NCBI GenBank assembly: GCA_002937855.1
Contig: PTKS01000001.1
Coordinates: forward strand, 97,948 to 161,947
Length of the DNA: 64,000 nt
Source: Alphaproteobacteria bacterium MarineAlpha5_Bin12
GTDB lineage: Bacteria > Pseudomonadota > Alphaproteobacteria > HIMB59 > GCA-002718135
Direction of reading: 5' to 3'
How positions within the stretch are numbered: the first letter of the stretch is position 1; each line of letters opens with the position of its first letter. The notes below the pieces were generated by a model, which was given only the letters and a program-made list of their open reading frames with translations, did no database searches and was not told the origin of the DNA. Of this stretch, positions 43,537 through 64,000 are shown in pieces. The position numbers were made by a program, and so were the translations under genes.

Positions 43537-44049
43537 ATGCCCAAAATAATTTCATTATATGTAAATTTTGTAGACTGGTTATGCATAAAAGTTGGAAGAA
43601 TAACTATGTACACAGTTTTTTTGATGATGTTTATTTTAGTTCTATCATTTGTAACAAGAAATATAATAAACATTCCACTAATTTGGATTATAGAAATGGC
43701 ACAATTTATTATTACAGGTTATTACTTGCTTGGTGGTGGCTACTCTATGATTACTAATGACCATGTTCGTATGGATTTATTTTACAGTAAATTGTCTGAT
43801 CGTAACAAAGCAAAGATGGATTTGTTTACTAGTATTTTTTTAGTTTTTTATTTAGTTTGTTTATTAATAGGTTCTATAACAAGTTTAATATATACAATTG
43901 ATACAAATCAAAGATTATTTACTGCTTGGGCTCCATATGTATGGCCAATAAAAACAATAATGTTTTTTGGCATTTTGTTGATGTTACTTCAATCAATTTC
44001 AATGATTTTTAAAGATTTTTCGAAGGTAACAGGGAGAAAAATTAAATGA
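43537..44049 (+). CDS. TRAP transporter small permease (DctQ-like)
   Basis: 170-aa ORF, 4 TM. 4-nt overlap with the large permease. Confidence 0.8.
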   Translation: MPKIISLYVNFVDWLCIKVGRITMYTVFLMMFILVLSFVTRNIINIPLIWIIEMAQFIITGYYLLGGGYSMITNDHVRMDLFYSKLSDRNKAKMDLFTSIFLVFYLVCLLIGSITSLIYTIDTNQRLFTAWAPYVWPIKTIMFFGILLMLLQSISMIFKDFSKVTGRKIK

Positions 44050-45374: not shown

Positions 45375-45480
45375 AATATTAATAGTTTTTACTATAATTT
45401 ATGAATATTTATCTAATTTATTAAATAGACTTTTATTCAAATTAGAGCTAGAATTTTTTAATTGTTTTTTTGGAGGAAAA

Positions 45481-47458: not shown

Positions 47459-48892
47459 ATGAAGAAATTTCAAAGCTATATTAATGGTACCTGGATTGAT
47501 AGTTCCACTGGAGAAATAATAGTTGTCGATAATCCAGCAACTGAAGAAATAGTAGGTGAAGTTGCTTGTGCTAGTAATGAAGATGTTGACTTAGCAGTAG
47601 AAGCTGCAAAAAAGTCATTTCTAAAAAGAGATTTAGTAGATATGCATCCAATGGAGAGATCAAAATTAATGCGATCTATTGCGATAGAGCTTAGAAATAT
47701 CTCTAAAGAAGCAGGAAAGTTGCTTTGTTATGAAAATGGAAAACTTTTATCAGGTGCAGAATATGAATTTCAAGATGCTGCAAATTATTTTGATTATTAT
47801 GGTGGACTAACAGATAAGCTAGAAGGATCAACAATCCCTGTTTCAAAAGGAGTTGTGGATTATACAATCTTGGAACCCTATGGTGTATCAGCTCATATAA
47901 TTCCTTGGAACTACCCTATCTCAATGATCGGAAGATCATTAGCGTGTTCAATTGCCACTGGTAATTCAACTGTAATTAAAACTCCTGAACTCGCTCCTTT
48001 AGCAGCTACTTCTTATTTTGCAGAAGCACTTGAAAAAGCTGGGATCCCTAAAGGAACAGTAAACATAATTTGCGGATATGGAGAAAAAACAGGTTCTTAT
48101 CTTGTGTCACACCCTGATGTAAATCATATAGCTTTCACTGGATCAGTTGAAACAGGAAAGAAAATATTGCATGCAGCTGCAGATAAAGCGATACCTGCAG
48201 TAGTAGAATTAGGGGGGAAATCAGCTGGAATTGTTTATCCTGATGCAGATTTAGATAAAGTGGTTAATAGTGCAAAAACTGCAATTTTTGGTGTAGCAGG
48301 ACAAATTTGCTCTGCTATGTCTAGGTTAGTTGTTCATAAATCTGTTAAGGATGAATTAGTTGATAAGCTGGTTAATTTGACAAAATCTCTAAAAGTAGGT
48401 GCTGGATATGAAAAAGGTGTTGATTGCACCCCTGTAATTTCAAAAAATCAATTAGAAAAAGTTGAGGGTTATGCAAGATCAGGAATTCAGGCAGGGGCAG
48501 AGGCAGTTGCGGGTGGTAAAAAGATTGAAGGAAAAGGATATTTTTTTGAATCAACTGTATTAGATGGCGTAAAACAAGATATGACTGTTGCTAGAGAAGA
48601 AATTTTTGGACCAGTTTTATCAATAATAGAATATGAAGATTCAGATGAAGCAATACAAATTGCAAACGACACAGATTATGGGCTTGCTGCAGGTGTATTT
48701 ACAAAAAATATAGACCAAGCAACAGAAGCATCAAATAAATTAGAGGCAGGTCAAATTTATGTTAATAGCTGGTTTACAGGAAGTATTGCAACTCCCTTCG
48801 GTGGATATAAACAATCTGGTTACAGTCGTGAAAAAGGACAACAAGCATTAAAAAGCTACCTTCAAGTTAAGAATGTAGGTATTCAACTTTAA
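47459..48892 (+). CDS. NAD(P)-dependent aldehyde dehydrogenase
   Basis: 477-aa ORF. ELGGKSA and catalytic-Cys region GQICSAMSR. Confidence 0.88.
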   Translation: MKKFQSYINGTWIDSSTGEIIVVDNPATEEIVGEVACASNEDVDLAVEAAKKSFLKRDLVDMHPMERSKLMRSIAIELRNISKEAGKLLCYENGKLLSGAEYEFQDAANYFDYYGGLTDKLEGSTIPVSKGVVDYTILEPYGVSAHIIPWNYPISMIGRSLACSIATGNSTVIKTPELAPLAATSYFAEALEKAGIPKGTVNIICGYGEKTGSYLVSHPDVNHIAFTGSVETGKKILHAAADKAIPAVVELGGKSAGIVYPDADLDKVVNSAKTAIFGVAGQICSAMSRLVVHKSVKDELVDKLVNLTKSLKVGAGYEKGVDCTPVISKNQLEKVEGYARSGIQAGAEAVAGGKKIEGKGYFFESTVLDGVKQDMTVAREEIFGPVLSIIEYEDSDEAIQIANDTDYGLAAGVFTKNIDQATEASNKLEAGQIYVNSWFTGSIATPFGGYKQSGYSREKGQQALKSYLQVKNVGIQL

Positions 48893-48896
48893 CTTT

Positions 48897-50129
48897 TTAA
48901 TTAAATCTACTTGCTCTGAAAGAAGAAATATCAAAATTTGGTTTTTTTTCATCTATTAAATATTGAATTATTTTACCTGTAACAGCTGCTGTAGTCCATC
49001 CTATATGTTGGTGGCCAAATGCATAAAAAATTCTTTCATCACTCTTTGATCTATCAATTACAGGAAGAGAATCTGGTAATGTAGGCCTATATCCAACCCA
49101 TGTAGACTTAATTTCATTTAAATTAGGAAGTAATTTTCTTGTTTGTTTTTCAATCATATTTACTCTTTTATTATTGAATTTTGAATTTAATCCTGCAATT
49201 TCCACAGTACCAGCAGATCTTATTCCTTCTTCAATTTGTATAATATAAAATCCAGACTGAGACCATCCAATAGGTCTACTAATTAATTTTTCTGTATTAG
49301 AAAAAAGAACATGATAACCTTTTTCAGTATCGAGTGGAAATTTATCACCTATTTTAAGCGCTAATTCCTTGGTCCATGCTCCAGTAGACAGTATAATTTT
49401 ATCAAAATTAGTTTTTTTATCTTCTAAAGACAACTCTATTGAATTTTCTTTTTTACCAATTGAAATAACTTTATTCTTTATAAAAGAACCACCTTTTTCA
49501 ATAAATTTATCAAATATCTTTGAACTTATTTTCATAGGATTAGTAGTGTACCTTGTGCCTTCAAATAAATGTCCTCTATAATACACATCTGCTATATTAG
49601 GCTCAATTTCTTTTATTTCCTCCTTACTTAAATCCTTAACTTTAACATTATTTTTAATTCTTAAGTCGTTTGTGGATTTTGAATATTCATATTCTTTCTT
49701 TGATGAATATAAATAAAGAGCTTCATTGTTATTTATATAATTTTCTACATCTATTTCGTTAAAAATTTCATCATAATAATATCTTGAATGAGATAATAAT
49801 TTTGATAATGATTGTGCAATATGTTCTACTTTTTCTTTTTTACAATTTTTCAAAAACTGATAAGACCAAGGTAAATTTTTAAGTAGATAAATAAAATCAA
49901 TTGCCAAAGGTCCATCATTTTTTAACAACATACTTGGAACTTCTTTTAAAATTGAAGGTGAATTTATTGGTACACAAGCATAATCAGCAAACGTACAAGC
50001 ATGTCCATAACTCGTCCCTGAACCAGGCATATTTTGATCTATTAGAGTTACCTTAAATCCATTTTTTTGTAAAAAAAAAGAAGTGCAAAGGCCCACAATC
50101 CCTGCCCCAATTACAGCAACATTTTTCAT
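48897..50129 (-). CDS. FAD-dependent oxidoreductase (DAO/D-amino-acid dehydrogenase-like)
   Basis: 410-aa ORF. N-terminal VAVIGAGIVGLCTS dinucleotide fold. Follows the ABC permease genes after a 6-nt gap. Confidence 0.8.
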   Translation of the reverse strand: MKNVAVIGAGIVGLCTSFFLQKNGFKVTLIDQNMPGSGTSYGHACTFADYACVPINSPSILKEVPSMLLKNDGPLAIDFIYLLKNLPWSYQFLKNCKKEKVEHIAQSLSKLLSHSRYYYDEIFNEIDVENYINNNEALYLYSSKKEYEYSKSTNDLRIKNNVKVKDLSKEEIKEIEPNIADVYYRGHLFEGTRYTTNPMKISSKIFDKFIEKGGSFIKNKVISIGKKENSIELSLEDKKTNFDKIILSTGAWTKELALKIGDKFPLDTEKGYHVLFSNTEKLISRPIGWSQSGFYIIQIEEGIRSAGTVEIAGLNSKFNNKRVNMIEKQTRKLLPNLNEIKSTWVGYRPTLPDSLPVIDRSKSDERIFYAFGHQHIGWTTAAVTGKIIQYLIDEKKPNFDISSFRASRFN

Positions 50130-50135
50130 TAAAAT

Positions 50136-51026
50136 TTATCTTGCTTTTATACCGCGAAGTCTTTCTGCTCTTCGTCGGAGAATTTCAACAGTGGACAACA
50201 ATAAAATAGATAAAACAACTAAACATGTAGCCATACATAAAATAACGGGGCTTATTTCTTGCCTTATACCTGCCCACATTTGCTTAGGTATCGTTAGTTG
50301 ATCAAGACTTGCCATAAACATCACAATTACCACCTCATCAAATGATGTAATAAAGGCAAATAAAGCTCCCGATATCACTCCTGGTAAAATTAGAGGCATG
50401 ATAACTTTGAAGAAAGTTCTAATTGGTTTTGCTCCTAAACTTTGAGAAGCTTTAGTCATATTTGTATCAAACCCTACAAGCGTCGCGGTTACTGTAATAA
50501 CAACAAATGGTGTTGCAAGTGCTACGTGGGCCATAATAATTCCTGTAAATGTATAAACAAGATTAAATCTTGCATAAAAGAAAAACATACCTGCAGCAGT
50601 AATGATCAAAGGCACTATCATTGGAGATATCAAGATTGACATTATTAAGCCCTTGTAAGGCATATGTGGTCTACTTAAACCCAATGCAGCTAATGTGCCC
50701 AATGAAGTTGCAATAAATGTAGATGTTAATCCAACAAAAAAACTGTTTACTGTTGCATACATCCATTTATTACCACATGGAGTTGTAAGACTTTTATCAG
50801 TACAAATTCCAACCATATATCTATACCATCGTAATGACCAGGCTTCTGGATCAGGGGGAAAAGTAAGCATACCTTCAGTAAAAATCATAAAAGGTGATAC
50901 ACTAAATGATATAGGGATTATCGCTACTAATGGTGCGATAAGGAAAAAAAATACAGTTCCACAAAAGAATAAATAAAAATAATAAAATAATCTTTGTCCT
51001 GAGGTTGTGTAACTAGGTAATGCCAT
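50136..51026 (-). CDS. ABC transporter permease (PotC-like)
   Basis: 296-aa polytopic ORF. EAA-loop region SQSLGAKPIRTFFKVIMPLILPG. Confidence 0.85.
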   Translation of the reverse strand: MALPSYTTSGQRLFYYFYLFFCGTVFFFLIAPLVAIIPISFSVSPFMIFTEGMLTFPPDPEAWSLRWYRYMVGICTDKSLTTPCGNKWMYATVNSFFVGLTSTFIATSLGTLAALGLSRPHMPYKGLIMSILISPMIVPLIITAAGMFFFYARFNLVYTFTGIIMAHVALATPFVVITVTATLVGFDTNMTKASQSLGAKPIRTFFKVIMPLILPGVISGALFAFITSFDEVVIVMFMASLDQLTIPKQMWAGIRQEISPVILCMATCLVVLSILLLSTVEILRRRAERLRGIKAR

Positions 51027-51028
51027 TT

Positions 51029-52303
51029 TTATCCTAACTTTATATTATCAATTCCAACTATTTTATTATACAACCAATACAAAACTAACATTAAAACTAA
51101 AAGAATGCTCCCTAAAGCGGAGCATAAACCCCAATTTAAAGTAGTCTTTAGATGATATGCTATCCAGTGACCAATTAATTGTCCATCCTTGCCTCCTACT
51201 AATGCAGGAGTAATATAGTAACCTATTGCTAAAACAAATACTAATAAACCTCCAGCGCTTATTCCTGGAATTGTCTGCGGTAAGTATACTTTATAAAAAG
51301 CGCGAGCTGGTTTAGCTCCCAAATTTTGCGCAGCTCTCATATGACTCTTAGGAATTACTTTCATAACACTGTAAAGAGGTAAAATCATAAAAGGTAGAAG
51401 TATTTGCGTCATTGCTATTATAGTACCTGTCATATTGTATACCATTTGAATTCTCTGATCATCGTTAATGATTCCTAACCAAACCAATATACCATTTATT
51501 ACCCCATTTTGTTGAAGCATCACAATCCACGCGGTTGTTCGAACAAGTAAAGAAGTCCAAAAAGGTAATAAAACAAATATCATTAATAAATTACTATACC
51601 GAAGAGGAAGGTTAGCTAATAAATGAGCTACTGGAAAACCTAAAATTAAGCAAAAAAATGTCACGTAAATACTTACTTCAAGCGTTCTCCACCAAGTTCT
51701 TACATATATTCTTCTCTCTTCATTTTGTTTGACTACACTTCCATCTATATCGAAAGTCCTATCCATTGCATTCCAATAATAAATAGAAGTAGTTTCATTA
51801 ATCATTTGATTCATTGCAATCCAAAAAGTAGGATCACCCCAGCCTTTATGAATTTCTATCAATGTATCTTTATAGGAAACCGGTAATTCTCCAGATTTTA
51901 CAATCTTTTTTATTTGTCTTCTTGTTTTCTTAATCAGACTTTTCCAACCTGACTTAGAATAATTCATTCGCGTTAGAGCTTTACCAACTTGAATACCTTC
52001 TCCAGTTGCTAATTCATCAAAAATTGCTCTATAAACCTCTTCTGGGGGCAAATCCTGTCCATCCCATTTTTCATATTCTTCAAATGTTTTTGGAAAAACT
52101 GTGTTAATGTGACTATCATCAACACTTCTCATAAGCATATCGCCTATGGGCACAACAAATGTTATTAAAATAAATAACAATAGAGGAAAAACCAAAAGAA
52201 AGGCTCTAAGCTTATTCTTTCTTTCTGTTTTTTTGAGACTTACTCTTAATGGTATGCCATCAGTTGTTAATATTTCAGTATTAGTTGTAATTTTGACCTC
52301 CAA
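51029..52303 (-). CDS. ABC transporter permease (PotB-like) with a ~150-aa extracytoplasmic insertion after TM1
   Basis: 424-aa ORF. EAA-loop AQNLGAKPARAFYKVYLPQTIPG. Only a TTG start (52303) precedes TM1, so the start is uncertain. Confidence 0.8.
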   Translation of the reverse strand: MEVKITTNTEILTTDGIPLRVSLKKTERKNKLRAFLLVFPLLLFILITFVVPIGDMLMRSVDDSHINTVFPKTFEEYEKWDGQDLPPEEVYRAIFDELATGEGIQVGKALTRMNYSKSGWKSLIKKTRRQIKKIVKSGELPVSYKDTLIEIHKGWGDPTFWIAMNQMINETTSIYYWNAMDRTFDIDGSVVKQNEERRIYVRTWWRTLEVSIYVTFFCLILGFPVAHLLANLPLRYSNLLMIFVLLPFWTSLLVRTTAWIVMLQQNGVINGILVWLGIINDDQRIQMVYNMTGTIIAMTQILLPFMILPLYSVMKVIPKSHMRAAQNLGAKPARAFYKVYLPQTIPGISAGGLLVFVLAIGYYITPALVGGKDGQLIGHWIAYHLKTTLNWGLCSALGSILLVLMLVLYWLYNKIVGIDNIKLG

Positions 52304-52307
52304 ATAA

Positions 52308-52332
52308 AAAGGCGAGAACTAATCTCGCCTTT
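52308..52332 (-). terminator. Intra-operon rho-independent terminator/attenuator after the binding-protein gene
   Basis: 10-bp stem AAAGGCGAGA / TCTCGCCTTT with a 5-nt loop. On the minus strand it is followed by TTATTTGG. Lies 31 nt after the SBP stop. Confidence 0.7.
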
Positions 52333-52363
52333 AAATTAAATCATGTTTTGTATTAAATCAAGC

Positions 52364-53464
52364 TTAGTTACCCATCCAAGCAGCATATCGCTCGTCAATT
52401 TCAGCTCCATTATCAGACCACCATTCAGGATCACCCATAACTGAAATTTTTAATCTTTCAGGAGTGTTCGGCATGTGTGGCATAACATCAATACCTGTGT
52501 GGAACCAAGGCTCACCAGCTTTAATGATATCAATACCTGATGCTCTCATTGGACCATAAGTGATATATTTAGCTTGTTCAGCTTGAGATGCGGGAGACGT
52601 AGCATGAATTAAGAAATCCATTGCTTGATCTCTATTTGGTGCACCAGTCATTAAACATAAATATTCTTGTTCTAATAACTGACCTTCCCAAATATATTCA
52701 AAGTTTGCACCTTCACTAAGAACTGCTGCGCCAACACGACCATTGTACGCGATTGACATACTAACTTCACCACTACTTACTAATTCAAGTGGTTGAGCTC
52801 CAGCTGACCAGTGAACAATATGATCTTTAATTTTATCCATTACACCAAATGCTCTGTCTATAGCGCCACTTTGGCTCTTCAACACTTTGTAAACACCTTT
52901 TGGTGCAATTCCATCTGCAACTAGTGCCATTTGGATAAATCCATTTGCCCAAGTATGAACGCCTCTTTTACCAGGATAATTTTCTACATCAAAAAAGTCT
53001 GCAATTTTTGATGGTTGTTTATCTGCTGGAAAAGCACTAGGATCGAAAAATACAACATAAGTCCAGAAAATTTGTGGACCACAACAGTCTGATAGATTTT
53101 CAACTCCATTAGCTGCCATATCCGCAATAAGTCCATCTCCATTTTCTGCTGCAACGAAATTATCGTATTCCCCAGAAATGTCTTCAAATAGACCTTCATC
53201 ACATCCAGTAATTGCTTCATCTGGAAGAACGTCTACTAAATCCCATGCAACATTTCCACTTTCTACTTGTGCACGAACTTCACCTAAACCACCATTATAA
53301 TTTTCAAATTGAATAGCGCTAGGATCACTGTAAGTGTCTGCATATGCCTTAATTTGACTTTCTGTATACGCTCCACCCCAAGATGCTACAGTCACTGCAG
53401 ATGCTGAGAAAGAAAATAACGCGCATACCGATGCAAATAAGAAGGCTTTAATAAATTTTAACAT
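52364..53464 (-). CDS. ABC transporter periplasmic substrate-binding protein (PotD/PotF-like, family 1)
   Basis: Signal peptide MLKFIKAFLFASVCALFSFSASA. AGGAGG lies 8 nt before ATG 53464, so I prefer this start over tracked 53470. Markedly GC-richer and poorer in Lys/Asn than its neighbours. Confidence 0.85.
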   Translation of the reverse strand: MLKFIKAFLFASVCALFSFSASAVTVASWGGAYTESQIKAYADTYSDPSAIQFENYNGGLGEVRAQVESGNVAWDLVDVLPDEAITGCDEGLFEDISGEYDNFVAAENGDGLIADMAANGVENLSDCCGPQIFWTYVVFFDPSAFPADKQPSKIADFFDVENYPGKRGVHTWANGFIQMALVADGIAPKGVYKVLKSQSGAIDRAFGVMDKIKDHIVHWSAGAQPLELVSSGEVSMSIAYNGRVGAAVLSEGANFEYIWEGQLLEQEYLCLMTGAPNRDQAMDFLIHATSPASQAEQAKYITYGPMRASGIDIIKAGEPWFHTGIDVMPHMPNTPERLKISVMGDPEWWSDNGAEIDERYAAWMGN

Positions 53465-53588
53465 AATCATGTCCTCCTATTTTATAGTTTGTTTGATTAA
53501 GTACTTATTCAAAGTTGTTTTATATAACACGAATAGGATTAAAAAAAAGGCTAAATTTGTTATAAATTTGAAATATATATTGATTTTA

Positions 53589-54677
53589 TTAGGTATTTTT
53601 GATGTCTAACGCCCTTATATCAGATGAGTTCCAAGAAACATTAATTTTATCTCCTTCGTTTAAGGATAAAGATCCTTCGTTTGGAGTTTTAACAATAAAT
53701 TGATCATTATTGCACACATTTAATCTTATTCTTATATGGTCACCTAAATAGATCAGTTCTTTAACTTCTCCTTCAAAGTTATTTTCTTCTTCTTTATTTG
53801 AGTTTATTGTGACTCTTTCTGGGCGTACTGATAATTCAGTCGCATCTCCTTCTGAATTTACATTTACTTTTAAAGCTTTCACTTGGCTCCCTCCGTTTAC
53901 TTCTACATCACATAAATCACCTTCAATTTTTTTTACTATTCCTGTAAATCTATTATTTTCTCCTATGAATTGCGCCACGAAAGAATTTTCAGGTTTTTCA
54001 TAAAGAACATCAGGTGTAGATAACTGTTGAACAACTCCATCATTAAATACAGCTATTCTATTGGACATAGTTAATGCTTCACTTTGATCATGAGTTACAT
54101 AAACTACTGTAATTCCAATTCTTTCATGAATATGTTTAATCTCATATTGCATTTGTTCTCTCAAATTTTTATCTAACGCTCCAAGAGGCTCATCCATTAA
54201 GACTAAGCGAGGTTCAAAAACTAATGCTCTAGCTAAAGCAACTCTTTGTTGTTGACCACCCGATAATTGAGCTGGGAAGCGATTACCAAATTCACCCAAT
54301 TCAACCATATCTAATGCCTTTTTGACTCTTGTAGTTACATCTGATTTAGAAATTTTTCTTACCTCTAAAGGAAAAGCAAGATTTTCTTGAACTGTCATAT
54401 GAGGAAAGAGAGCATAATTTTGAAATACCATTCCAATTTCTCTTTCGTAGGGTGGAATTTTGCTTATTGGTTTATTATCTAAATAAATTTCACCATTTGT
54501 AGGAGTTTCAAATCCTGCCAACATCATCAGTGTTGTTGTTTTGCCTGAACCAGAAGGTCCTAACATTGTAACAAACTCACCTTTGGATATATTTAAATTT
54601 AAGTTTTTAACAACTAAAACTTCGCCATCATAACTCTTATCAATTTTTTCAAAAACTACAAATCCACTGTTTTCCAT
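53589..54677 (-). CDS. ABC transporter ATP-binding protein (PotA-like, with C-terminal TOBE-type domain)
   Basis: Walker A GPSGSGKTT, signature LSGGQQQRVALARAL, Walker B LVLMDEPLGALD. ATG 54677 preferred over tracked GTG 54683. Confidence 0.9.
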   Translation of the reverse strand: MENSGFVVFEKIDKSYDGEVLVVKNLNLNISKGEFVTMLGPSGSGKTTTLMMLAGFETPTNGEIYLDNKPISKIPPYEREIGMVFQNYALFPHMTVQENLAFPLEVRKISKSDVTTRVKKALDMVELGEFGNRFPAQLSGGQQQRVALARALVFEPRLVLMDEPLGALDKNLREQMQYEIKHIHERIGITVVYVTHDQSEALTMSNRIAVFNDGVVQQLSTPDVLYEKPENSFVAQFIGENNRFTGIVKKIEGDLCDVEVNGGSQVKALKVNVNSEGDATELSVRPERVTINSNKEEENNFEGEVKELIYLGDHIRIRLNVCNNDQFIVKTPNEGSLSLNEGDKINVSWNSSDIRALDIKNT

Positions 54678-54772
54678 ATACACACTTTTAATTTATTTAT
54701 AGACATTTGTAATAGACGAATAACTAGCAAAATGTCAATATTAATAGCTATATTATTTTATTTTTTTTATCA

Positions 54773-55642
54773 ATGAATATAAATGGTTTTTTTTCTGCAA
54801 TCTTGGCAGCATCTTTATTTGGTATGATACCAACGTTTACAAAAATATCATATGGGTACCAAATCAGCCCACAATTAGCGGTGTTTACTAGATATGTACT
54901 TGCTTTAATTTTAATAATAGTTCCATTTATTATTTACAAAAATAATTATAAAATTATTAAACAAAAAATTTTTCTACTTTTACTTATTTCTTTAGGTTCT
55001 ATATGCCTTTCAACTGGGTTGCTAGTATCTGTAATATTTATTCCAGTAAGTTTAGTGGCATTAATTTTTTATACGTACCCTTTAATTGTCCTAGGATATT
55101 CAAGTATTTTTGGAAAGAAATTAAATAAGATTCAAATAATAGGTTTTTTTTTAGCTTTTGCAGGACTGGGATTAGCTTTAGGCCCAAACTTTGAAACATT
55201 AAATATATATGGAATAATGTTAGCATTATTAGCATCAATTGGAGCAGCAACTATATTAATTACAAATGAAATTTTAGCTAAAGATTTGAATCCCTTTACA
55301 ATTAATGCATTTGTTAATTTTTTTTGTTTTTTAGTTTTAGTATTAGTTATAGGGATAAATTTTGATATTGATTTAAATGTTCCAAACTTGGGAAAAATTT
55401 ATATATTTTTTGCCTCATTATTTTACTGTGCAGCTTTTTTTGCACAATTAATAGCTGTAAGTTATATTGGCTCTACAAAAACTTCTCTAATATTATATTT
55501 AGAACCTATAGTGGCAATAATTTCAGCAATAATACTATTAAATGAATCTTTAACAAAAATTCAAACTTTAGGAACAATAATAGTCATATTTTCTTTGGTA
55601 ATTTCTTTAAGAAAAAATACTAACCAATTGTATTCTTCATAA
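54773..55642 (+). CDS. EamA/DMT-family transporter
   Basis: 289-aa 10-TM ORF. Its 3' end overlaps the convergent M19-like gene by 23 nt. Confidence 0.75.
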   Translation: MNINGFFSAILAASLFGMIPTFTKISYGYQISPQLAVFTRYVLALILIIVPFIIYKNNYKIIKQKIFLLLLISLGSICLSTGLLVSVIFIPVSLVALIFYTYPLIVLGYSSIFGKKLNKIQIIGFFLAFAGLGLALGPNFETLNIYGIMLALLASIGAATILITNEILAKDLNPFTINAFVNFFCFLVLVLVIGINFDIDLNVPNLGKIYIFFASLFYCAAFFAQLIAVSYIGSTKTSLILYLEPIVAIISAIILLNESLTKIQTLGTIIVIFSLVISLRKNTNQLYSS

Positions 55643-56609
55643 AATTTAGCCAATTAGATCCCATTATCTTGATTGCATTTTTTTCAGAAATTCCAGATTT
55701 AATTAATGCATTATAAATATTTATTATGTCACTACCTTTTCTAAACCATTGTGGTTGGGTTGGCCATTTTATACTTTTATTTTTTGATTCACCATAATCC
55801 AATTTTTTTGTCCATTTTCCATTTCTCATCCAAACAACCACTTCATCTTTCCAATTACTACATAAATCACTTCCAATTCCAATACTCTCGATACCAATTA
55901 GATTTATCAAATCCTTAACCATTTGACAAAAATCTTCTATTTTGCATTTGTTATGATTTTTTAAATGATAAGGGTATAAACTTAGTCCTATAAATCCATT
56001 TTTATTTGAAAGTTTTTTTAAGACATCATTTTCAATGTTTCTTTTTGATTTATGAAAAAAAAATGGATTTGCATGTGAAATGGCCACGGGTTTTTTAGAA
56101 ATTTTTATTGCATCTAGGCATGTTTTTTTTCCCGCATGACTTAAGTCAACAATTATTCCTAGATTATTCATTTCTTCAATTACTTGATGTCCGAATCTTG
56201 AAATACCCGAGTCAACTGCTTCAAAGCATCCTCCGCCTATAGCAGTTTGATTGTTATATGTTAATTGCATAAATCTCAGCCCTAGAGAATAAAATTTTTC
56301 TAATAAAAAAATATTATTTTCTATAGGAGCTGAATTTTGAAATCCAAAAATTATAGCTACTTTGTTATTTTTTTTTGCTTTTATTATATCATCAGTATTT
56401 TTGGCATGAGTAATTATATCTTTATTTTTTTTAATTCTGATTTGCCATTTTTTAATTTTATTTATTGCCTCTTCAGTGTTTTCCCAATACACAATAGTTA
56501 CGTGAACAGCTGTAAGGCCACCCTGCCATAAGTCTTCCAATATTTTTCTGTTCCAATTGCAATATTGAAGACCATCAATAAGAATATGATTTTTTAATGG
56601 ATTTTTCAT
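55620..56609 (-). CDS. M19 (renal dipeptidase)-like amidohydrolase with a partly degenerate metal site
   Basis: 329-aa ORF with no signal peptide. DLSHAG, ISHANP and GSD are retained. The usual DGHND is DGLQY and the bridging Glu region reads FGFQNS. Confidence 0.7.
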   Translation of the reverse strand: MKNPLKNHILIDGLQYCNWNRKILEDLWQGGLTAVHVTIVYWENTEEAINKIKKWQIRIKKNKDIITHAKNTDDIIKAKKNNKVAIIFGFQNSAPIENNIFLLEKFYSLGLRFMQLTYNNQTAIGGGCFEAVDSGISRFGHQVIEEMNNLGIIVDLSHAGKKTCLDAIKISKKPVAISHANPFFFHKSKRNIENDVLKKLSNKNGFIGLSLYPYHLKNHNKCKIEDFCQMVKDLINLIGIESIGIGSDLCSNWKDEVVVWMRNGKWTKKLDYGESKNKSIKWPTQPQWFRKGSDIINIYNALIKSGISEKNAIKIMGSNWLNFMKNTIG

Positions 56610-56688
56610 TTAAATTTTTGCAAATAATGTATTTATTTATATATATATTTTATAATACGATGCTAAAAAAATAATTAAACTAAAAAAA

Positions 56689-58353
56689 ATGAAATCAAAA
56701 GAAATTATGACATTAAAAAGGATGGGTTCGAAATACCCATCTAGACTAAGTTTTTCAAGGAGTATGCTTAGATTATTGGTTAGAGAAAAATGGAAAATTA
56801 GAAAATCAAAATTTGATTTAGATAAAAATGGCTATGGTACAGTTATCTATGAGGTGGATACTTTGAAAGGAATTTATTCTCTTATATGCTTTTCTCGTTT
56901 TTTGAATGATGAAGAAAGAAGTGATAGGGTAATTGCTGATAAATGGGATACTGCTTATACACTTCACATAGGAAAAATTAGTAAAAAAAATTTAAATAGA
57001 TTAAAAGAAAATGTTCCACTTCAAGAATTAGGCAGAAATTCACCAAATGAAATAATTTTAAGTCGGGCAAATAAAAGTGTGCGTTTGTTCAAAAAAGTAG
57101 TCGAATGTCTTTCAAATGGTGAACAGCCTAGTATTAAAGAAATTAATGAAGTCGGATATTTAATGAGAACAACAGCCGTGTATGGAAGTGGAAAATTTGG
57201 ATTATCTGATTTTGAAAGAACAAAAAAAGCTACATTATTTGATCAGCCATTTAGAGCAGAAATGTTATCTGTATATATTATAAGAGAATTTAGCGTAGAT
57301 TTAGTTGAGCATATAGCACATCATATTAATCCTAAAAAAGCAGTAAAACTTGATAAAAAAATTAAACAACACCTAGGTATTGGAAACTCTACTGGCTTAG
57401 GAATGGCTCCCTTTGTTATTAAACATCCAAAATTGATTCATAAATGGATGAACCAGTTTAATCTTGCAGTTAACAAAATATATTCTTTGAAAAATATAAA
57501 TCAAAAAAAATTAAATGAATTTATTAAATTAATTGAAAAGTCTAAAGACTATTTAAAAGAAGTAAAAACTGTTGATAGTTTTCAAATTAAAAAAAATGCG
57601 AAAGCTTTAGCAGATATTAAAAAAACAATTATATTTTTGAAAAAAAATAATCCTAAAAAAAATAATTATCAATGGAAAAATATTATCGATTTTGCTTACA
57701 AAAATTTAAACTATGATGCTCAAGAGATAATAAAAGTTCAGCTTATAGAATTATACCCTGAAATTGCTGACCCGTTAGGAGATGACATGTCAAATTCTGA
57801 TGATTTATATATAAAATCAAATGAAAAAATTTCTTCATTAATTGAATTTATTGAAAAAAATTATCAATGGGCGATTAAAATAGATTTTAATAAAAAAGAA
57901 AATTCATATTTATTTTGGTATATCTCAGAAGAAAAATTAGAGCCTAGATTGGGAGAAAGATATAATGAAAAAGGTTCTGAACTTGAACAACCCTTAGGAA
58001 TTGGAAAATTGGTTCAAATTTTGTATAATTTTTTACTTCAACATAAAGAAACTCATAAAGAAACAGTTGCTAAATTCTTACTTAGTTATCCCGAATACAG
58101 GGGAATTATCAGAAGAATACAAACATTATCAGATTACAAATTTGGAGAAGTAAAAGATAATATTTTAGCAAAAAATACTATGCCTATAGATATGTTGCGA
58201 TTTAAATTATCTTTTTTTGGTGCATCGCGCTATGATCCAAAATCTGATAGATGGTTAAGAGTAAGTTTTTTTGCTGGTGCTCCATTTTATAGAGATTTAT
58301 CTAATAAAAATGTTGATACTTGGGGTTTTACAACTATGAATTCTTACAATTGA
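56689..58353 (+). CDS. Hypothetical protein, 554 aa, no motif I can recognise
   Basis: Long uninterrupted ORF in an AT-rich genome where random ORFs are short. Soluble, with no TM segment or signal peptide. Coupled to the next ORF by a TTGA overlap. Confidence 0.65.
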   Translation: MKSKEIMTLKRMGSKYPSRLSFSRSMLRLLVREKWKIRKSKFDLDKNGYGTVIYEVDTLKGIYSLICFSRFLNDEERSDRVIADKWDTAYTLHIGKISKKNLNRLKENVPLQELGRNSPNEIILSRANKSVRLFKKVVECLSNGEQPSIKEINEVGYLMRTTAVYGSGKFGLSDFERTKKATLFDQPFRAEMLSVYIIREFSVDLVEHIAHHINPKKAVKLDKKIKQHLGIGNSTGLGMAPFVIKHPKLIHKWMNQFNLAVNKIYSLKNINQKKLNEFIKLIEKSKDYLKEVKTVDSFQIKKNAKALADIKKTIIFLKKNNPKKNNYQWKNIIDFAYKNLNYDAQEIIKVQLIELYPEIADPLGDDMSNSDDLYIKSNEKISSLIEFIEKNYQWAIKIDFNKKENSYLFWYISEEKLEPRLGERYNEKGSELEQPLGIGKLVQILYNFLLQHKETHKETVAKFLLSYPEYRGIIRRIQTLSDYKFGEVKDNILAKNTMPIDMLRFKLSFFGASRYDPKSDRWLRVSFFAGAPFYRDLSNKNVDTWGFTTMNSYN

Positions 58354-59057
58354 TAGTGAGTTATTCATTTTACGAAATATACATAACAGCACAAAGAGCT
58401 TTTACAGCTATGGGATTTCCTTATGGCTGTGACGAAGATGCGGCATTTATCATAACTTGGCTGGAGCTAAATAATTTTCAAGGAATTAAAATCTTATCAA
58501 ATTTAATTTCTGAAATGGACCAAAAATATGAAGGAAAAATTGAAATAAATAATTTAAATGAAAAAATAAATTTTAAAAATAAATCAATTTTAATGAAAGG
58601 TGCTGGATTAATAGACTATCTTAATTCAGAAATTAAAAATAAAAATAAAATTTCTATAAACATCATAAATTGCAAAGATGGAATATTATTTCTACCTCTT
58701 CTTTATAAAAAATCTGAATATGTGAATTCATATCAATTAACTTTTCATGATGTTAATAATGAGATAAAAACTTATGAAATTTTTGATAAAGAAATAATAT
58801 TATGTCAAAAAAAATATAGTGATTTATTAAATCAAAACACTGTCTGTATTGTCATTAATAACAATAAAGAAAAAGTAAATAATTCTAATAAGAATAGTAT
58901 TATTTCAGAAAAAAAAATTCAAAAAAATCTTGCGCAATCTATAAAACCAAAATCAGATTCATGGGATAAAATTACAAAATTAGCAAATAAAACATTTGTT
59001 CCTGAATCTGAAGAGTCAAGAAATAAAGGAGCGGGTGGAGGAAATGACAATGATTAG
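58350..59057 (+). CDS. Hypothetical protein, ~235 aa, Gly-rich acidic C-terminus
   Basis: Tracked as 58320..59057 (TTG). In-frame TTG 58350 overlaps the upstream TGA (TTGA); GTG 58356 is an alternative start. No recognisable catalytic motif. Confidence 0.6.
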   Translation: MIVSYSFYEIYITAQRAFTAMGFPYGCDEDAAFIITWLELNNFQGIKILSNLISEMDQKYEGKIEINNLNEKINFKNKSILMKGAGLIDYLNSEIKNKNKISINIINCKDGILFLPLLYKKSEYVNSYQLTFHDVNNEIKTYEIFDKEIILCQKKYSDLLNQNTVCIVINNNKEKVNNSNKNSIISEKKIQKNLAQSIKPKSDSWDKITKLANKTFVPESEESRNKGAGGGNDND

Positions 59058-59070: not shown

Positions 59071-60183
59071 TTATATAAAAGGTAATGCACAAAGCTTAGC
59101 TTGGTAAATATCATTGCCAATAACTATTTGATATTCTTGTGAAACATTCCAGAATGGTTTATTAATCATTGCTATACCTATAACTTTTTTAAAATTAGGA
59201 GAATATACACCCGATCTCATATCTCCAACAATATTATTATCTTTATCTTTTAGTTCTATCGAACCTGAAACGTTAATGGTTTTAGTTTCAATAATAATTC
59301 CCATTAATTTTCTTGTAATTCCTTTAGTTTGAATTTTTTTTAATTCGTTTTTTCCTATAAATTCCACATCACTGTCTATATTTATAAATTTGTCAAAACC
59401 ACATTCAAAAGGATTATCATTATTATCAAAATCATTACCACAAGATAATAAAGCGCTTTCAATTCTTTCTATAAGATTTGGGTATCCTGGTCTGATATTG
59501 AATTCTTTTCCAATATCAAATAAAGAATCATACAATTCTAACCCTGACTTTGTATTTTCAACATATATTTCGTAACCACCCTGCTTTGACCAACCAGATC
59601 TTGCTATTAAATGGTCTGTGTCTTTAAATTCAAAATAATCAAAGTCAAAAAACTTTAGTCCTCTAATTTTTTCTCCTAAAATTTTTTCCATTAAAATATA
59701 TGATTTTGGTCCTTGTACAGCTAATATGTTTACATTAGGTTCTATAATGTTAACTTTTAGGTCATATCCTATAGCTAATCCTTTAGCATATAAAATTACA
59801 TCACTATCTGCTATTGAAAGCCACCATTTTTCAATACTATGTCTTAAAACTACAGGATCATTAATCAAACCACCTTTATTATCAATGATTGGACAATAAT
59901 AACATCTACCATCTTTTGATTTTGATAAATCTCTACAAGTCATTAATTGCACAAGCCTTGCTGAATCTTTCCCAGAAATTTCTACCTGCCTTTCTCCAGC
60001 CACATCCCAAACCTGAACGTGTTCTTTTAGATGATAATAATCATCTTCTAAAGAATTATTAAATCCAGTTGGGAGTAACATATGATTATAAACAGTATAA
60101 GAAGTAAGACCCTGTTTTTCTAATCTAGAAGTATAGGGAGTACTTCTTATTCTTCTAGATTTTGATATTAAAAAATTTTTCAC
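59071..60183 (-). CDS. dmdA: GcvT-fold aminomethyltransferase, DMSP demethylase DmdA-like
   Basis: 370-aa ORF. From memory, [20 protein letters not shown].., ..[24 protein letters not shown].., ..[16 protein letters not shown].., ..NPFECGFD.. closely track the Pelagibacter ubique DmdA sequence. Confidence 0.72.
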
Positions 60184-60201: not shown

Positions 60202-61368
60202 CTAAACTAAATGCAAACTTCTTGGAAAATTACAAAACAATTCACATCCATTTTCTGTAACTCTTATTGATTCACTTATTTCTAATCCCCAAGTGTCCAT
60301 CCACATTCCTGCCATCAAATGATAAGTTACATTTGGTCTCAATTCTGTCATATCATTTTTTCTTATACTTAATGTATGTTCGCCCCAGTCTGGTGGATAT
60401 CCAATCCCAATAGAATAACCAGCTCTTGAATCTTTTTTTACATCATATTTTTCTAATACATTCCAAAAAGCTGTTGCTACATCATTAGCTGTGTTTCCAG
60501 GCTTTGTAAATTTAATTGCATTTTCTACACTTTCATTTGTAATTTTCATTGTTTCTCTAATTTTATCATTTGGTTTTCCTATATATACAGTTCGTGCCAT
60601 AGGGCAATGATATCGATTTTTAACTCCTCCCAATTCAATTATAGTTCCTTCATTATTAGAAAATTTTTTATCTGATGGGGTTAAATGAGCGGCTGAAGCG
60701 GCATTTCCGCTTGCTAATATTATGGTTAGTCCTGAATACTCACCTCCCATTTTGTCATTTCCAGAAATCAATGCTTGTTGAATATTTCCAGCCACCTCAT
60801 TTTGTCTAATACCAGGCTTAATTGAATCATAAGCTTTCTGCATACCAAGTTGAACCAATACACTAGCTTTTTTCATATATTCAATTTCTGCATCAGACTT
60901 AATAAGTCTTACCCAGTTAACTAACAAATGAGCATTTCGAAATTTTGCATTGGGACATTGAGAGGTTAATCTATAATGAATTTCAGCAGTATAATAATAA
61001 CTATCCATTTCAACACCTATTGATTTATTATCCCAATTTTTACTCTTTAAAAAGTCTGATACAAAATCAAAAGGATGTTGTGGGGGGTATTGTATTAATT
61101 TTTCGGGGTAACCTAAAATATTTTTTTCATTTAAATATGTTGTAATCTTAGCTCCATTAGCATCTTGTTTTCTTCCAATCCAAACTGGTTCTGTATAATC
61201 AATATTCAATATTATTAATTGTGGAACATAAAATGACCAACCGTCATAACCAGATAAGTAGTACATATTTGATGGATCTGTGCAAATTAAAATATCTATC
61301 CCATTCTTAGTCATAGCATTTTTAGTTTCTTTTATTCTTTTTTCAAATTCTTCTTTAGAAAAATTCAT
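60202..61368 (-). CDS. Creatinase/ectoine-hydrolase (DoeA/EutD)-type M24-fold hydrolase lacking the canonical metal ligands
   Basis: I trimmed the ORF to ATG 61368 (MNFSKEEF..), which forms an ATGA overlap with the upstream stop. Creatinase_N-like N-terminus. GYSIGIGYPPDWGEH. The Asp ligand positions read IELGG / HCPMART. Confidence 0.75.
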   Translation of the reverse strand: MNFSKEEFEKRIKETKNAMTKNGIDILICTDPSNMYYLSGYDGWSFYVPQLIILNIDYTEPVWIGRKQDANGAKITTYLNEKNILGYPEKLIQYPPQHPFDFVSDFLKSKNWDNKSIGVEMDSYYYTAEIHYRLTSQCPNAKFRNAHLLVNWVRLIKSDAEIEYMKKASVLVQLGMQKAYDSIKPGIRQNEVAGNIQQALISGNDKMGGEYSGLTIILASGNAASAAHLTPSDKKFSNNEGTIIELGGVKNRYHCPMARTVYIGKPNDKIRETMKITNESVENAIKFTKPGNTANDVATAFWNVLEKYDVKKDSRAGYSIGIGYPPDWGEHTLSIRKNDMTELRPNVTYHLMAGMWMDTWGLEISESIRVTENGCELFCNFPRSLHLV

Positions 61369-62150
61369 TTTTCTGACTCCAATAATTTTCCAAATCCATA
61401 TATTGGAGAATTCATTTTTATAGAACGTAAACAATCCCAAATTGTCACTTGATTGCTTGTTAAAACTGGCTTTTTAATAATATTTTCTATATCTTTTATA
61501 ATACTTAATATTGGCATTGCTGTACATGATATAAAAACTCCATCTGATTTATTGTCATTAATTGATTTAATTGTATTGATAATTGATTCCTTTTTTATCA
61601 TTGCTACATCTTTATCTGACTCAATATTGAAAGAATTGAAGCTTGTAACATTAATATTGTTTTTTTCCAAATAATCAAAAATTGTTTTATTAACAATTTT
61701 AGGATAAGGAGTTAATACAGCAACTTTATTTAATGATAGTTTTTTAAATGCTTTCAAAGCTGCAGTGATGGGTGTAGTTACATAACAATTTTTCTTTACA
61801 GCAGATATTTGTTTTATTACTTCTTTTTCACCTATTGCTATTGTCCCAGAAGTACATCCATAGGCAATCGTATTAATTGACTCTCCAGGCAAAATATTTT
61901 CAGCTATAACAGATAATTTATTTTTCATCTTTAAATAATTCTTACGATTCATAGGATTTTTAAAAGGTATTCTATTAACATATAAATTAACTGGTTTTTT
62001 ATAGATAAGATTTCTAAAATCTTGCTCTATGGTAAAATCAGTGGAAAGCGTTATAAGACCAATTCTGGGTGTCTCATTTTTTTGAAACTCAGCTTCATAA
62101 TTATTTTGTAAAAAATTTTTCAATTTTGTTTTGGAAAATAATCTTCGCAA
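61365..62150 (-). CDS. Asp/Glu/hydantoin racemase-superfamily protein (maleate isomerase / EutA-like) with both catalytic Cys
   Basis: RIGLITLSTD, AYGCTSGT and FISCTAM. Start is either tracked TTG 62150 or in-frame TTG 62123, which forms a TTGA overlap with the upstream stop. Confidence 0.7.
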   Translation of the reverse strand: MRRLFSKTKLKNFLQNNYEAEFQKNETPRIGLITLSTDFTIEQDFRNLIYKKPVNLYVNRIPFKNPMNRKNYLKMKNKLSVIAENILPGESINTIAYGCTSGTIAIGEKEVIKQISAVKKNCYVTTPITAALKAFKKLSLNKVAVLTPYPKIVNKTIFDYLEKNNINVTSFNSFNIESDKDVAMIKKESIINTIKSINDNKSDGVFISCTAMPILSIIKDIENIIKKPVLTSNQVTIWDCLRSIKMNSPIYGFGKLLESEK

Positions 62151-63238
62151 CTGCCTTCTCTATAAACATCCGTAGTTGCGCAATGTAATGCGCCTCCAAA
62201 AGGATATGCATCTCTAAATGGCACTGGTATTACTTCCATACCTAGTTTATCTAACTGCTCTAACTGGTATACCTCGCTTTCTTCAACGCAGACAGTTTTG
62301 GGATCAACTACTAAAACATTCATGCTTAACCATACGCTTGAATAACATAAAGGGGGGGGTTGATTATGAGCAGGTTGAGCTGCATCCACTATTTCCCAAT
62401 CATTATTATAAAATATTTTTTTTTGTTCCTCTGGTAATTGCCTTGATGAGTTATTTAAAACTAGACCCGGTCTTATAGGTGTAAAAGTAGCATCAATGTG
62501 AATTGGATATGGGTCGCCTGGAAAATTAAGAATGTGCACTCTATGATTAGAAAAGTGTCTTTTTATCCAATTTGCACCTTTAATATTTGTTGTAAATCCA
62601 TTTTGTATAAAAAGATCCTTACCCATTCTTAAAATATCTGCAGCATCAAATAGAGGCTCTTCTTCAGTTGTTACAAATTCTTTATTTTTTACCATATCTA
62701 ATCTCTCTTTAATTGTAATTCCATCACTCAGATAATTTTTTCTATAAGATTTTTCTGTTAATCTTGGTTTTGGAGCAGATTCCCATTTCATATTTTTATC
62801 TTCATCAAAATATTTTTGAAGAAGGGGTCTATAACAAAGATATTCAAACCATCTTGATCTGTAAGACATTGTGGCTTCCAACATCTCATTTCCTAGAGTA
62901 AGAATCACATCTCTTGGTGGCATACAACCAAACATGCTCCCTATTTCCCAATCAGGAGTCATTGCTTTTTGATTAAAATTAATAGGTGTTGGTCTATCAA
63001 CTTTTATTCCTCTCTTTTCTAAAATTGATGATAATCCATCTAATTGTGCATTACCTTTATCAATTGATTCTTGAGTTCTTGGTCCATGTTTTCCTTTCAT
63101 ATCACTATCTTCAGGTATTTTTGGATCAGTAGCAGGCTCAGGTGGTGGTATACAACACCCATCAGCTCTACCGACTATTACATGTTTAAGAGGATCCCAT
63201 TCATTCCAAGAATTTACAATTATATTTTTTTCTGTCAT
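62120..63238 (-). CDS. Amidinotransferase, close homologue of L-arginine:glycine amidinotransferase (AGAT)
   Basis: 372-aa ORF. NSWNEWDPLKHVIVGR, MPPRD, FDAADI, PIHIDATF and GGALHCATTD parallel the AGAT sequence, including the Asp/His/Cys triad. Confidence 0.82.
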   Translation of the reverse strand: MTEKNIIVNSWNEWDPLKHVIVGRADGCCIPPPEPATDPKIPEDSDMKGKHGPRTQESIDKGNAQLDGLSSILEKRGIKVDRPTPINFNQKAMTPDWEIGSMFGCMPPRDVILTLGNEMLEATMSYRSRWFEYLCYRPLLQKYFDEDKNMKWESAPKPRLTEKSYRKNYLSDGITIKERLDMVKNKEFVTTEEEPLFDAADILRMGKDLFIQNGFTTNIKGANWIKRHFSNHRVHILNFPGDPYPIHIDATFTPIRPGLVLNNSSRQLPEEQKKIFYNNDWEIVDAAQPAHNQPPPLCYSSVWLSMNVLVVDPKTVCVEESEVYQLEQLDKLGMEVIPVPFRDAYPFGGALHCATTDVYREGSCEDYFPKQN

Positions 63239-63268: not shown

Positions 63269-64000
63269 ATGGATATTAGTAATAAAAAACTTTTCAAACA
63301 GCAATGTTTTATTAATGGTGAATGGATAGATTCAGAAGATAATCAAGTTTTAGAAGTTAATAATCCTGCTACACAAGACATTTTAGGAACTATTCCTAAT
63401 TGTGGAAAAAATGAAACAAAAATTGCAATTCTAGCTGCTGAAAAGTCTTGGACTAATTGGAAGTCAAAAACAGCAAAAGAAAGATCTGGTATTTTAAAAA
63501 AATGGTTTAAATTAATTGAAGAAAATCATGAAGATTTATCTAAAATAATGACCTTTGAACAAGGAAAATCTATCAATGAATCTAGAGCAGAAATTACCTA
63601 TGGAGCTTCATTTGTGGAATGGTATGCTGAAGAATGTAGAAGAGTTTATGGAGATACTATACCTGATATTTTAGAAGACAGAAGAACAATAGTCATTAAA
63701 CAACCTGTAGGCGTAGTTGGAGCTATTACGCCATGGAATTTTCCAAGTTCAATGATAACAAGAAAGTGTGCTCCTGCATTAGCTGTCGGCTGCCCTGTTA
63801 TAATTAAACCAGCAAGCCAAACTCCTTATTCTGCACTAGCATTAGCAGCTCTTGCTGAAGAAGCAGGATTTCCAAAAGGGACAATAAACGTAATAACAGG
63901 ATCTGCTAAAGATATAGGTTTTGAATTATCAACTAATCCAATTGTAAGAAAATTATCATTTACTGGATCAACTGAAATTGGAAAAATACTTTTAAAACAA
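63269..64000 (+). CDS. gabD: Succinate-semialdehyde dehydrogenase-type aldehyde dehydrogenase, N-terminal 244 codons (runs off the right edge)
   Basis: Not in the ORF track. My translation is MDISNKKLFKQQCFINGEWIDSEDNQVLEVNNPATQDILGTIP..VGAITPWNFPSSMITRK..FTGSTEIGK, the GabD/SSADH pattern. Confidence 0.8.
   Translation, partial: MDISNKKLFKQQCFINGEWIDSEDNQVLEVNNPATQDILGTIPNCGKNETKIAILAAEKSWTNWKSKTAKERSGILKKWFKLIEENHEDLSKIMTFEQGKSINESRAEITYGASFVEWYAEECRRVYGDTIPDILEDRRTIVIKQPVGVVGAITPWNFPSSMITRKCAPALAVGCPVIIKPASQTPYSALALAALAEEAGFPKGTINVITGSAKDIGFELSTNPIVRKLSFTGSTEIGKILLKQ

Follow-up and report, generated by a model that had tools for sequence, protein, structure and literature searches.

Gene content and layout of the locus

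The 64,000-nucleotide stretch of contig PTKS01000001.1 (assembly GCA_002937855.1, contig positions 97,948 to 161,947) from Alphaproteobacteria bacterium MarineAlpha5_Bin12, an HIMB59-lineage genome, is referred to here as the window. It is AT-rich (21-35% GC in 2-kb windows) and contains a three-gene module, comprising an M19-fold amidohydrolase and two adjacent proteins, whose relation to the homABCDER genes for the catabolism of homarine (N-methylpicolinate) is the subject of this report. The homC-like gene (55620..56609, minus strand) encodes the 329-aa M19-fold amidohydrolase. An AT-rich divergent intergenic region of 79 bp (56610..56688, inspected in the sequence) separates it from the homB-like gene (56689..58353, plus strand), which encodes the large subunit of the HomB-HomA unit, a 554-aa protein of an orphan family. 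This is followed by the homA-like gene (58350..59057, plus strand) for the small subunit, a DUF3726 protein of 235 aa if translated from a TTG codon or, likelier, 233 aa if translated from a GTG codon.

A sequence-only reading of this DNA had described the two plus-strand genes as open reading frames (ORFs) joined by a TTGA stop/start overlap, 79 bp from a divergent M19-family neighbour, and very unlikely, at their length, to have arisen by chance. Each of these points stands. The homB/homA junction reads caaTTGAtagtgag, in which the TGA stop of homB (58351-58353) is overlapped by TTG 58350-58352, and the divergent gap is correct as described. Because most HomA homologues begin with M/V-SYSFYE in the alignment, GTG 58356, located 2 nt past the homB stop, is probably the true homA start; homB and homA are tightly coupled whichever start holds, and the same gene pair overlaps by 1-4 nt in other taxa. 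More than 8000 proteins in a set of 5.8 billion match the 554-aa ORF, and 744 database proteins match the small ORF. Promoters presumably sit in the 79-bp gap; a scan with consensus promoter and terminator patterns gave no discrimination against the AT-rich background.

The HomC-like protein

The M19-like protein scores 258.5 bits against PF01244 (cut-off 26), and its matches in the PDB include 1ITQ, 3ID7 and 5LWZ, with 2I5G as the closest relative (E 1.8e-62). A MAFFT alignment with the renal dipeptidase DPEP1, using the residue numbering of 1ITQ checked against its sequence, shows the substitutions H20 to L, D22 to Y, E125 to Q and H152 to Y, while H198 (DLSH), H219 (SHAN), R230 and D288 (GSD) are retained. 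The binuclear zinc set H20, D22, E125, H198 and H219 is thus incomplete, and reads L, Y, Q, H and H in the window protein. The by-eye alignment made earlier was correct, and its proper replacement does not restore the missing ligands.

The states at E125, H152, H198, H219, R230 and D288 are the same in all 13 homologues compared, which span three proteobacterial classes, and the H20/D22 substitutions are found in 12 of the 13, the gene call in Sulfitobacter starting downstream of those columns. As the same substitutions occur in every homologue that has the columns, the altered ligand pattern reads as a subfamily hallmark and not as a local loss. Judged from these alignments, the residues for one metal site are missing from HomC, which is not a binuclear dipeptidase of the canonical kind, as had been proposed from the sequence, and is probably mononuclear, with at most one metal bound on the H198/H219/D288 side.

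The HomB-like and HomA-like proteins

The 554-aa protein has no match in Pfam, NCBIfam or the PDB, whether searched as a single sequence or as a 104-sequence profile. Its family nevertheless comprises 1265 clusters at 50% identity (E<=1e-3), 364 of them at E<=1e-30; an identical protein is recorded for MarineAlpha5_Bin12, and relatives at 77% identity come from HIMB59-type metagenome-assembled genomes and single-cell genomes. Across both halves of this very diverse family, approximately 30 polar or aromatic residues are conserved at >=85%, including nine near-invariant Arg, a single His (H246), Glu346/354, and several Trp and Tyr; a G-x-G-N-S-x-G-x-G loop is present, and a conserved Cys is absent. 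The AlphaFold model of the window HomB is of high confidence (predicted local distance difference test, pLDDT, 95.9; predicted template-modelling score, pTM, 0.94), and a Foldseek search of this model against 350,542 PDB chains gave no match better than E 0.8.

The claim that neither protein has a nameable motif therefore holds for the 554-aa protein, but only in part for the small one, in which Pfam recognizes a DUF3726 domain (E 4.9e-10). A HomA profile matched nothing in the PDB, and a literature search on DUF3726 returned nothing. Conservation in HomA is highest at the extreme C-terminal tail, FVPESEESRxKGAGGG(D/N)D(N)D (window 58980-59057), with the motif SExSRxxGAGGG; among 21 diverse sequences, S223, A228 and G229 do not vary, and R224, G227 and G231 hardly vary.

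In many relatives the two proteins are fused: among the 150 best family representatives, 38 have lengths of 760-943 aa, and of these 38, 16 match DUF3726 in the C-terminal extension and eight give a sub-threshold Ldh_2 Pfam match. In the two fusions inspected individually (P0338 and P0341), the Ldh_2 match is co-linear and follows the DUF3726 match. These natural fusions confirm that HomB and HomA act together, as one unit. The model of a natural fusion (pLDDT 88.6, pTM 0.91) places the HomA C-terminal tail in a low-confidence region; the tail may insert into HomB. In Foldseek comparisons, the DUF3726 part of this model aligns with type-2 malate/lactate dehydrogenases over approximately 150 columns (probability approximately 1.0, E 0.025-0.6), whereas a profile comparison of DUF3726 with HomE-type Ldh_2 proteins by hhalign was not significant (probability 1.3%). 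The window HomA has no Ldh_2 Pfam match, and the catalytic SHG histidine of Ldh_2 enzymes is not conserved in HomA alignments. On this mixed evidence, HomA resembles a shortened Ldh_2 domain that is catalytically degenerate, and not a flavoprotein. The structure prediction and Foldseek comparison proposed for the pair thus yielded a partial Ldh_2 match for the DUF3726 part, and no PDB relative for HomB.

Occurrence of the trio in other genomes

The trio of M19-like protein, ~560-aa protein and DUF3726 protein is found again in Alpha-, Beta- and Gammaproteobacteria, and is repeated on metagenomic contigs. A tblastn search of annotated plasmids and chromids matched 168 records. It is syntenic at every locus examined, covering HIMB59 relatives, Pseudomonas, Vibrio, Rhodobacterales and Rhizobiales. 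Conservation and adjacency of the pair in related genomes, which the sequence-only reading had proposed to look for, is therefore what was found, and this synteny together with the HomB-HomA fusions bears out its suggestion that the pair and the M19-like protein form a functional module. The usual gene order is (RidA) / LysR / aldehyde dehydrogenase / M19-like 'membrane dipeptidase' / BCCT / ~570-aa protein / DUF3726 / (Ldh_2 oxidoreductase), as found in Ruegeria sp. TM1040, Phaeobacter, Aliiroseovarius, Sulfitobacter, Vibrio campbellii, Pseudomonas sp. MPC6 and Mesorhizobium. In the 29%-GC genome GCA_049472155.1 (L017 8001-12655), RidA, aldehyde dehydrogenase, M19-like and BCCT genes are followed by a single 804-aa HomB-HomA fusion.

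In GCA_049472155.1, a 745-aa molybdopterin oxidoreductase lies directly after the 804-aa fusion, and may point to hydroxylation as a step in the pathway there. At another locus (L018 5366-10411), a Rieske ring-hydroxylating oxygenase and a YccV-like gene lie directly upstream of the M19-HomB-HomA genes, and there is no aldehyde dehydrogenase.

A paralogous trio is present on pSymB of S. meliloti and in Aminobacter (L007 8223-17854; L009 8187-18332). Its HomB is 25-30% identical to the HIMB59-type protein, and it is paired with IclR, a PotD-type ABC transporter, RidA, and an aminotransferase or a thiamine diphosphate-dependent (acetolactate-synthase-like) enzyme, without an aldehyde dehydrogenase. 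This trio likely serves a different, uncharacterised substrate. In a neighbour-joining tree of the family, constructed without bootstrap, the HIMB59 clade falls within the half that includes the hom-type proteins of Ruegeria, Vibrio and Pseudomonas, and not with the S. meliloti-type paralogues. Between the window HomB and its ~570-aa counterpart in the Ruegeria, Vibrio and Pseudomonas clusters, identity is 40-43%; the canonical proteins are 39-44% identical to each other across classes (Vibrio, Pseudomonas, Rhodobacterales) and 54-66% within the alphaproteobacterial set. The window HomC is 41-48% identical to the M19-like proteins of canonical clusters, and 38-39% to the S. meliloti-type paralogue.

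Correspondence with the homarine operon

The homABCDER operon was defined through transcriptomics, gene deletions and random-barcode transposon sequencing (RB-TnSeq) (Ferrer-Gonzalez et al., Nat Microbiol 2026, PMC13236597). In this pathway homarine is converted into N-methylglutamate and from there into glutamate, the methyl group being kept when the ring is opened, and growth on homarine requires homB, homC and homD in Ruegeria pomeroyi, and homD in Cobetia (PMC13236597). The R. pomeroyi genes are SPO3188-SPO3192, with SPO3191 as the aldehyde dehydrogenase, while in Cobetia sp. OBi1 (ACFLL8_11490-11520) the order is homE, homA, homB, a glycine-betaine-type transporter, homC ('peptidase'), homD (aldehyde dehydrogenase) and homR, the transporter and homE being treated as variable (PMC13236597). 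Among 11,755 genomes, homA and homB are adjacent in 97.7%; SAR11 and SAR116 are among the carriers of the operon, and AlphaFold predicts a HomA-HomB heterodimer (interface pTM plus pTM 0.92-0.95) (PMC13236597). The same study reports that hidden Markov models (HMMs) of homA and homB are specific, while that of homC gave false positives and that of homD many non-specific matches, that E-values reach 1e-240 for homB versus 1e-57 for homA, and that the shorter gene is less well recovered in metatranscriptomes (PMC13236597).

The Cobetia order, when reversed, is the order found in the Vibrio, TM1040 and Phaeobacter clusters. Since both gene content and order match the published homABCDER, these clusters are taken to be hom operons, and the comparison strongly suggests the following mapping: HomE is the Ldh_2 oxidoreductase, HomA the DUF3726 protein, HomB the ~570-aa protein, HomC the M19-like protein, HomD the aldehyde dehydrogenase and HomR the LysR regulator. 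The HMM specificities and E-values given in PMC13236597 fit this mapping. When the TM1040 proteins are compared with the window, their best matches are the trio (HomB 40%, HomC 41% and HomA 24% identity). Two features of the hom core, a HomB-type gene followed by an adjacent HomA-type (DUF3726) gene and a co-located HomC-type M19-like gene (79 bp away, divergent), are present in the window.

The function of the trio is thus largely explained, as a member of a gene system described in 2026, in an organizationally variant form. The block had earlier been considered the largest genuinely unassignable coding sequence in the window, a description that no longer applies, with the cluster matching a genetically validated operon; assignment to a characterized family, which that reading had named as grounds for refuting it, is essentially what was found, and neither the M19 variant, which has a relative of solved structure in 2I5G, nor the small protein, with its Pfam domain, was unassignable in itself.

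The HIMB59-type arrangement

The genes preceding the trio in the window are an aldehyde dehydrogenase (477 aa, 47459..48892, plus strand; Pfam Aldedh, 526 bits), a DAO-family FAD oxidoreductase (410 aa, 48897..50129, minus strand; Pfam DAO, 177.6 bits), a PotABCD-type ABC transporter (50136..54683, minus strand) consisting of two permeases, a binding protein (52364-53470) and an ATPase (53589-54683), and an EamA-family transporter (54773..55642, plus strand; Pfam EamA), which is syntenic in the HIMB59-type genomes L002 and L014. The convergent EamA and homC-like genes share 23 nt at their 3' ends (55620-55642). In L014, a 63%-identical HIMB59-type relative, the order is aldehyde dehydrogenase, DAO oxidoreductase, PotABCD-type transporter, EamA, homC (reverse), homB, homA, M24 hydrolase, soxGADB-type genes and Ldh_2. 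The window matches this block up to the M24 gene, with different genes beyond (59% identity for the DAO oxidoreductase, 72% for the ABC transporter binding protein and 67% for the M24 gene). The aldehyde dehydrogenase occupies the same position in L014 and L015 as in the window, all HIMB59-type relatives have the M24 gene in synteny with the trio, and a heterotetrameric gene set of the sarcosine oxidase or N-methylglutamate dehydrogenase (NMGDH) type, together with an Ldh_2 gene, adjoins the trio in these relatives.

This conserved context suggests candidates for the missing canonical partners. The aldehyde dehydrogenase at 47459-48892 is a possible non-orthologous stand-in for HomD, the DAO oxidoreductase could catalyze an N-methyl amino acid oxidizing step, and the PotABCD-type transporter, found at the position of the canonical BCCT, may be the uptake system. 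The roles of the absent HomD, HomE, HomR and BCCT are thus probably taken by the syntenic aldehyde dehydrogenase, DAO oxidoreductase and ABC transporter. The idea that a PotD-type transporter is a feature common to this arrangement and the S. meliloti-type cluster was found unsupported, the binding proteins being 24-25% identical.

Directly after homA lies dmdA (59071..60183; NCBIfam equivalog, 536 bits versus a cut-off of 410), as also in L001 and L002. Its presence and that of the EamA gene confirm the earlier description of a module placed between an exporter and dmdA, but the link to organosulfur metabolism drawn from this placement is one of neighbourhood only; L014 keeps the trio without dmdA at that position. 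Homology indicates the nitrogen compound homarine as the substrate, and not dimethylsulfoniopropionate (DMSP). In Phaeobacter inhibens (L008 11849-17289), dmdA, dmdB, dmdD and dmdC follow the trio independently; trio and dmd genes may form a recurring 'phytoplankton osmolyte island', or their association may be a coincidence.

Several other genes of the window were recorded. The block after dmdA (60202-63238) contains the M24 hydrolase, which is DoeA/EutD-like (486 bits versus a cut-off of 613), an EutA-like protein (213 versus 318 bits), and a 372-aa amidinotransferase-fold protein with a weak arginine deiminase match; the latter two are replaced by soxGADB-type genes in HIMB59-type relatives, and the 412-aa ORF of the block probably starts approximately 24 codons later (MNFSKEEF...). 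A second, partial aldehyde dehydrogenase (63299..64000) runs off the window end; with 31% identity to HomD-type proteins (63299-63985), it was rejected as a HomD orthologue. At 40950-43471, the genes for a DddP-like M24 protein (368 bits versus an equivalog cut-off of 600) and for a Rieske oxygenase alpha subunit, which matches GbcA weakly, are divergently oriented, and a TRAP transporter follows at 43537-46551.

Assignment of the trio and alternative explanations

We consider it probable that the window trio represents homC, homB and homA of the HIMB59 lineage, and forms the core of a homarine catabolic pathway. A number of observations weigh against this assignment. There is no HomD orthologue in the window: the nearest aldehyde dehydrogenase (47459-48892, 6.7 kb away and within the 10 kb taken as co-location) is only 34% identical to HomD-type proteins, which are 59-95% identical to each other, and was rejected as HomD for this reason (the BLAST-only criterion of PMC13236597 might still count this gene). 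LysR, BCCT, Ldh_2 and sox/mgd genes were likewise not detected in the 64-kb window (LysR and BCCT by tblastn of TM1040 proteins, E<=1e-3). HomC diverges more from canonical HomC (41-48% identity) than the canonical proteins do among themselves (53-90%). The FAD-binding motifs reported for HomA (PMC13236597) were not recovered by Pfam or NCBIfam, and the mapping of HomA, HomB and HomC relies on gene order, product descriptions and HMM behaviour, and not on the R. pomeroyi or Cobetia sequences. Homarine use by HIMB59-type organisms is not on record, and the chemistry of HomAB and HomC is hypothetical.

Part of this evidence would suit a trio that is homologous to HomCBA but constitutes a distinct pathway variant acting on a related substrate, such as trigonelline, picolinate, another N-alkylpyridinium or N-heterocyclic zwitterion, or an N-methylated cyclic amino acid. 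The replacement of canonical HomD, HomR, BCCT and HomE by an unrelated aldehyde dehydrogenase, DAO oxidoreductase, PotD-type ABC transporter and EamA protein points in this direction, as do the divergence of HomC, intermediate between the canonical and S. meliloti-type proteins, and the occurrence of the family in other, paralogous settings (the S. meliloti/Aminobacter type; L018, where a Rieske oxygenase is present and an aldehyde dehydrogenase absent). However, identity among the HomB proteins of Vibrio, Pseudomonas and Rhodobacterales is itself no more than about 40-44%, the window HomB is no further from them and lies on the hom-type side of the tree, and the NMGDH/sarcosine-oxidase-type genes beside the trio in HIMB59-type relatives are those expected for a pathway producing N-methylglutamate. 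A different substrate is therefore unlikely, though it has a real share of the probability. Doubtful too, and slightly more so, is a more far-reaching proposal, in which HomB is a new enzyme fold that together with a degenerate HomA opens the ring in a manner unlike flavin, Rieske or molybdenum systems, the HIMB59-type trio is a distinct pathway variant, possibly for another substrate, and the wider family of 1265 clusters harbours additional catabolic systems yet to be characterized, the S. meliloti pSymB type among them.

Two other explanations would deny the pair a catalytic role, or deny the module altogether. HomB and HomA might be accessory to the M19-like hydrolase, as chaperone, sensor or scaffold, leaving all of the chemistry to the latter; a recognizable cofactor or catalytic motif is absent from both, and HomA lacks the Ldh_2 catalytic His. 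But the conserved residues of HomB, with nine Arg, His246 and Glu346/354 among them, are of the sort typical for active sites, a simple amidohydrolase cannot by itself open an aromatic pyridinium ring, and knockout of homB abolishes growth on homarine (PMC13236597), so that a purely accessory pair is highly improbable. Less credible still, to the point of being nearly negligible, is a coincidental adjacency of an ordinary M19 dipeptidase and two unrelated, lineage-specific genes of a DMSP/organosulfur island. The location of dmdA immediately downstream, and of dmdABCD beside the trio in Phaeobacter, would suit such an island, but the trio is conserved over three proteobacterial classes regardless of dmdA, three of the five zinc ligands of the putative dipeptidase are replaced, and the 63%-identical relative has no dmdA at that position.

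A possible route of ring opening

Homarine contains seven carbons and N-methylglutamate six; ring C6 must therefore leave, and C5 become a carboxylate. The most economical scheme for this conversion would parallel the catabolism of trigonelline. In this scheme, the HomB-HomA heterodimer, with HomB as the catalytic subunit and HomA as its partner, would activate and open the N-methylpyridinium ring to form an N-formyl-N-methyl enamine aldehyde. HomC would then hydrolyze the amide (probably N-formyl) on the nitrogen, using at most one metal, and this deformylation would release ring C6 and so form the C5 product. The C5 aldehyde would be oxidized by an aldehyde dehydrogenase, and the enamine/imine reduced to N-methylglutamate (by the Ldh_2 enzyme HomE where present), followed by demethylation. 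The presence of RidA genes in many hom-type clusters fits enamine or imine intermediates. An analogy of the hom pathway to trigonelline catabolism has also been proposed in PMC13236597.

Significance and comparison with known systems

Homarine is an abundant phytoplankton metabolite, for which a bacterial degradation route was genetically defined only in 2026. Core hom genes in an HIMB59/AEGEAN-169-type genome would extend the capacity for homarine use to another abundant, genome-streamlined ocean lineage, and the comparison of loci shows HomC-HomB-HomA to be the invariant core of the system, with aldehyde dehydrogenase, regulator, transporter and reductase as interchangeable parts. HomB without a structural relative in the PDB, an Ldh_2-like HomA and a one-site HomC make the ring-opening chemistry a well-defined biochemical target, and the remaining interest of the locus lies in the enzymology of HomB and in the HomD-less HIMB59-type arrangement.

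Among structurally characterized proteins, the M19 membrane dipeptidase DPEP1 (1ITQ) has the same fold as the window HomC and H198, H219, R230 and D288 in common with it, but one of its zinc sites with the bridging ligand (H20, D22, E125) and H152 are replaced in HomC. The P. aeruginosa 'amidohydrolase' 2I5G, a structural-genomics entry, aligns over the full length and has the IDGL and GFQN motifs in common with HomC; a literature search found no published function for it, and a possible link through it to the P. aeruginosa dgcAB (dimethylglycine) locus was considered and dropped. The DUF3726 part of the fusion model resembles members of the Ldh_2 family (1X0A, 1Z2I, YiaK 1S20, AllD 1XRH and DpkA 1WTJ) over approximately 150 columns, but HomA covers under half of the Ldh_2 fold (TM-score normalized to the target approximately 0.3), and a true Ldh_2 gene (HomE) is frequently present in the same cluster as the DUF3726 gene.

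A parallel in terms of chemistry is the TgnAB/TgnC/TgnD system for trigonelline catabolism in Acinetobacter baylyi (Perchat et al. 2018, cited in PMC13236597), in which ring opening of an isomeric N-methylpyridinium carboxylate leaves the N-methyl group in place and is followed by the action of a hydrolase and an aldehyde dehydrogenase. No relation in sequence or fold to TgnAB was found, and HomA and HomB contain no flavin reductase or flavin monooxygenase domain (Pfam, NCBIfam), so that the likeness between the Tgn and Hom systems is functional only. As for the hom operon itself, the window has the same three core families, with HomB and HomA adjacent and coupled and HomC beside them, and the organism is a marine oligotroph. 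The window differs from the hom operon in that homC is divergent from homBA and not co-oriented, and in that dmdA is inserted downstream.

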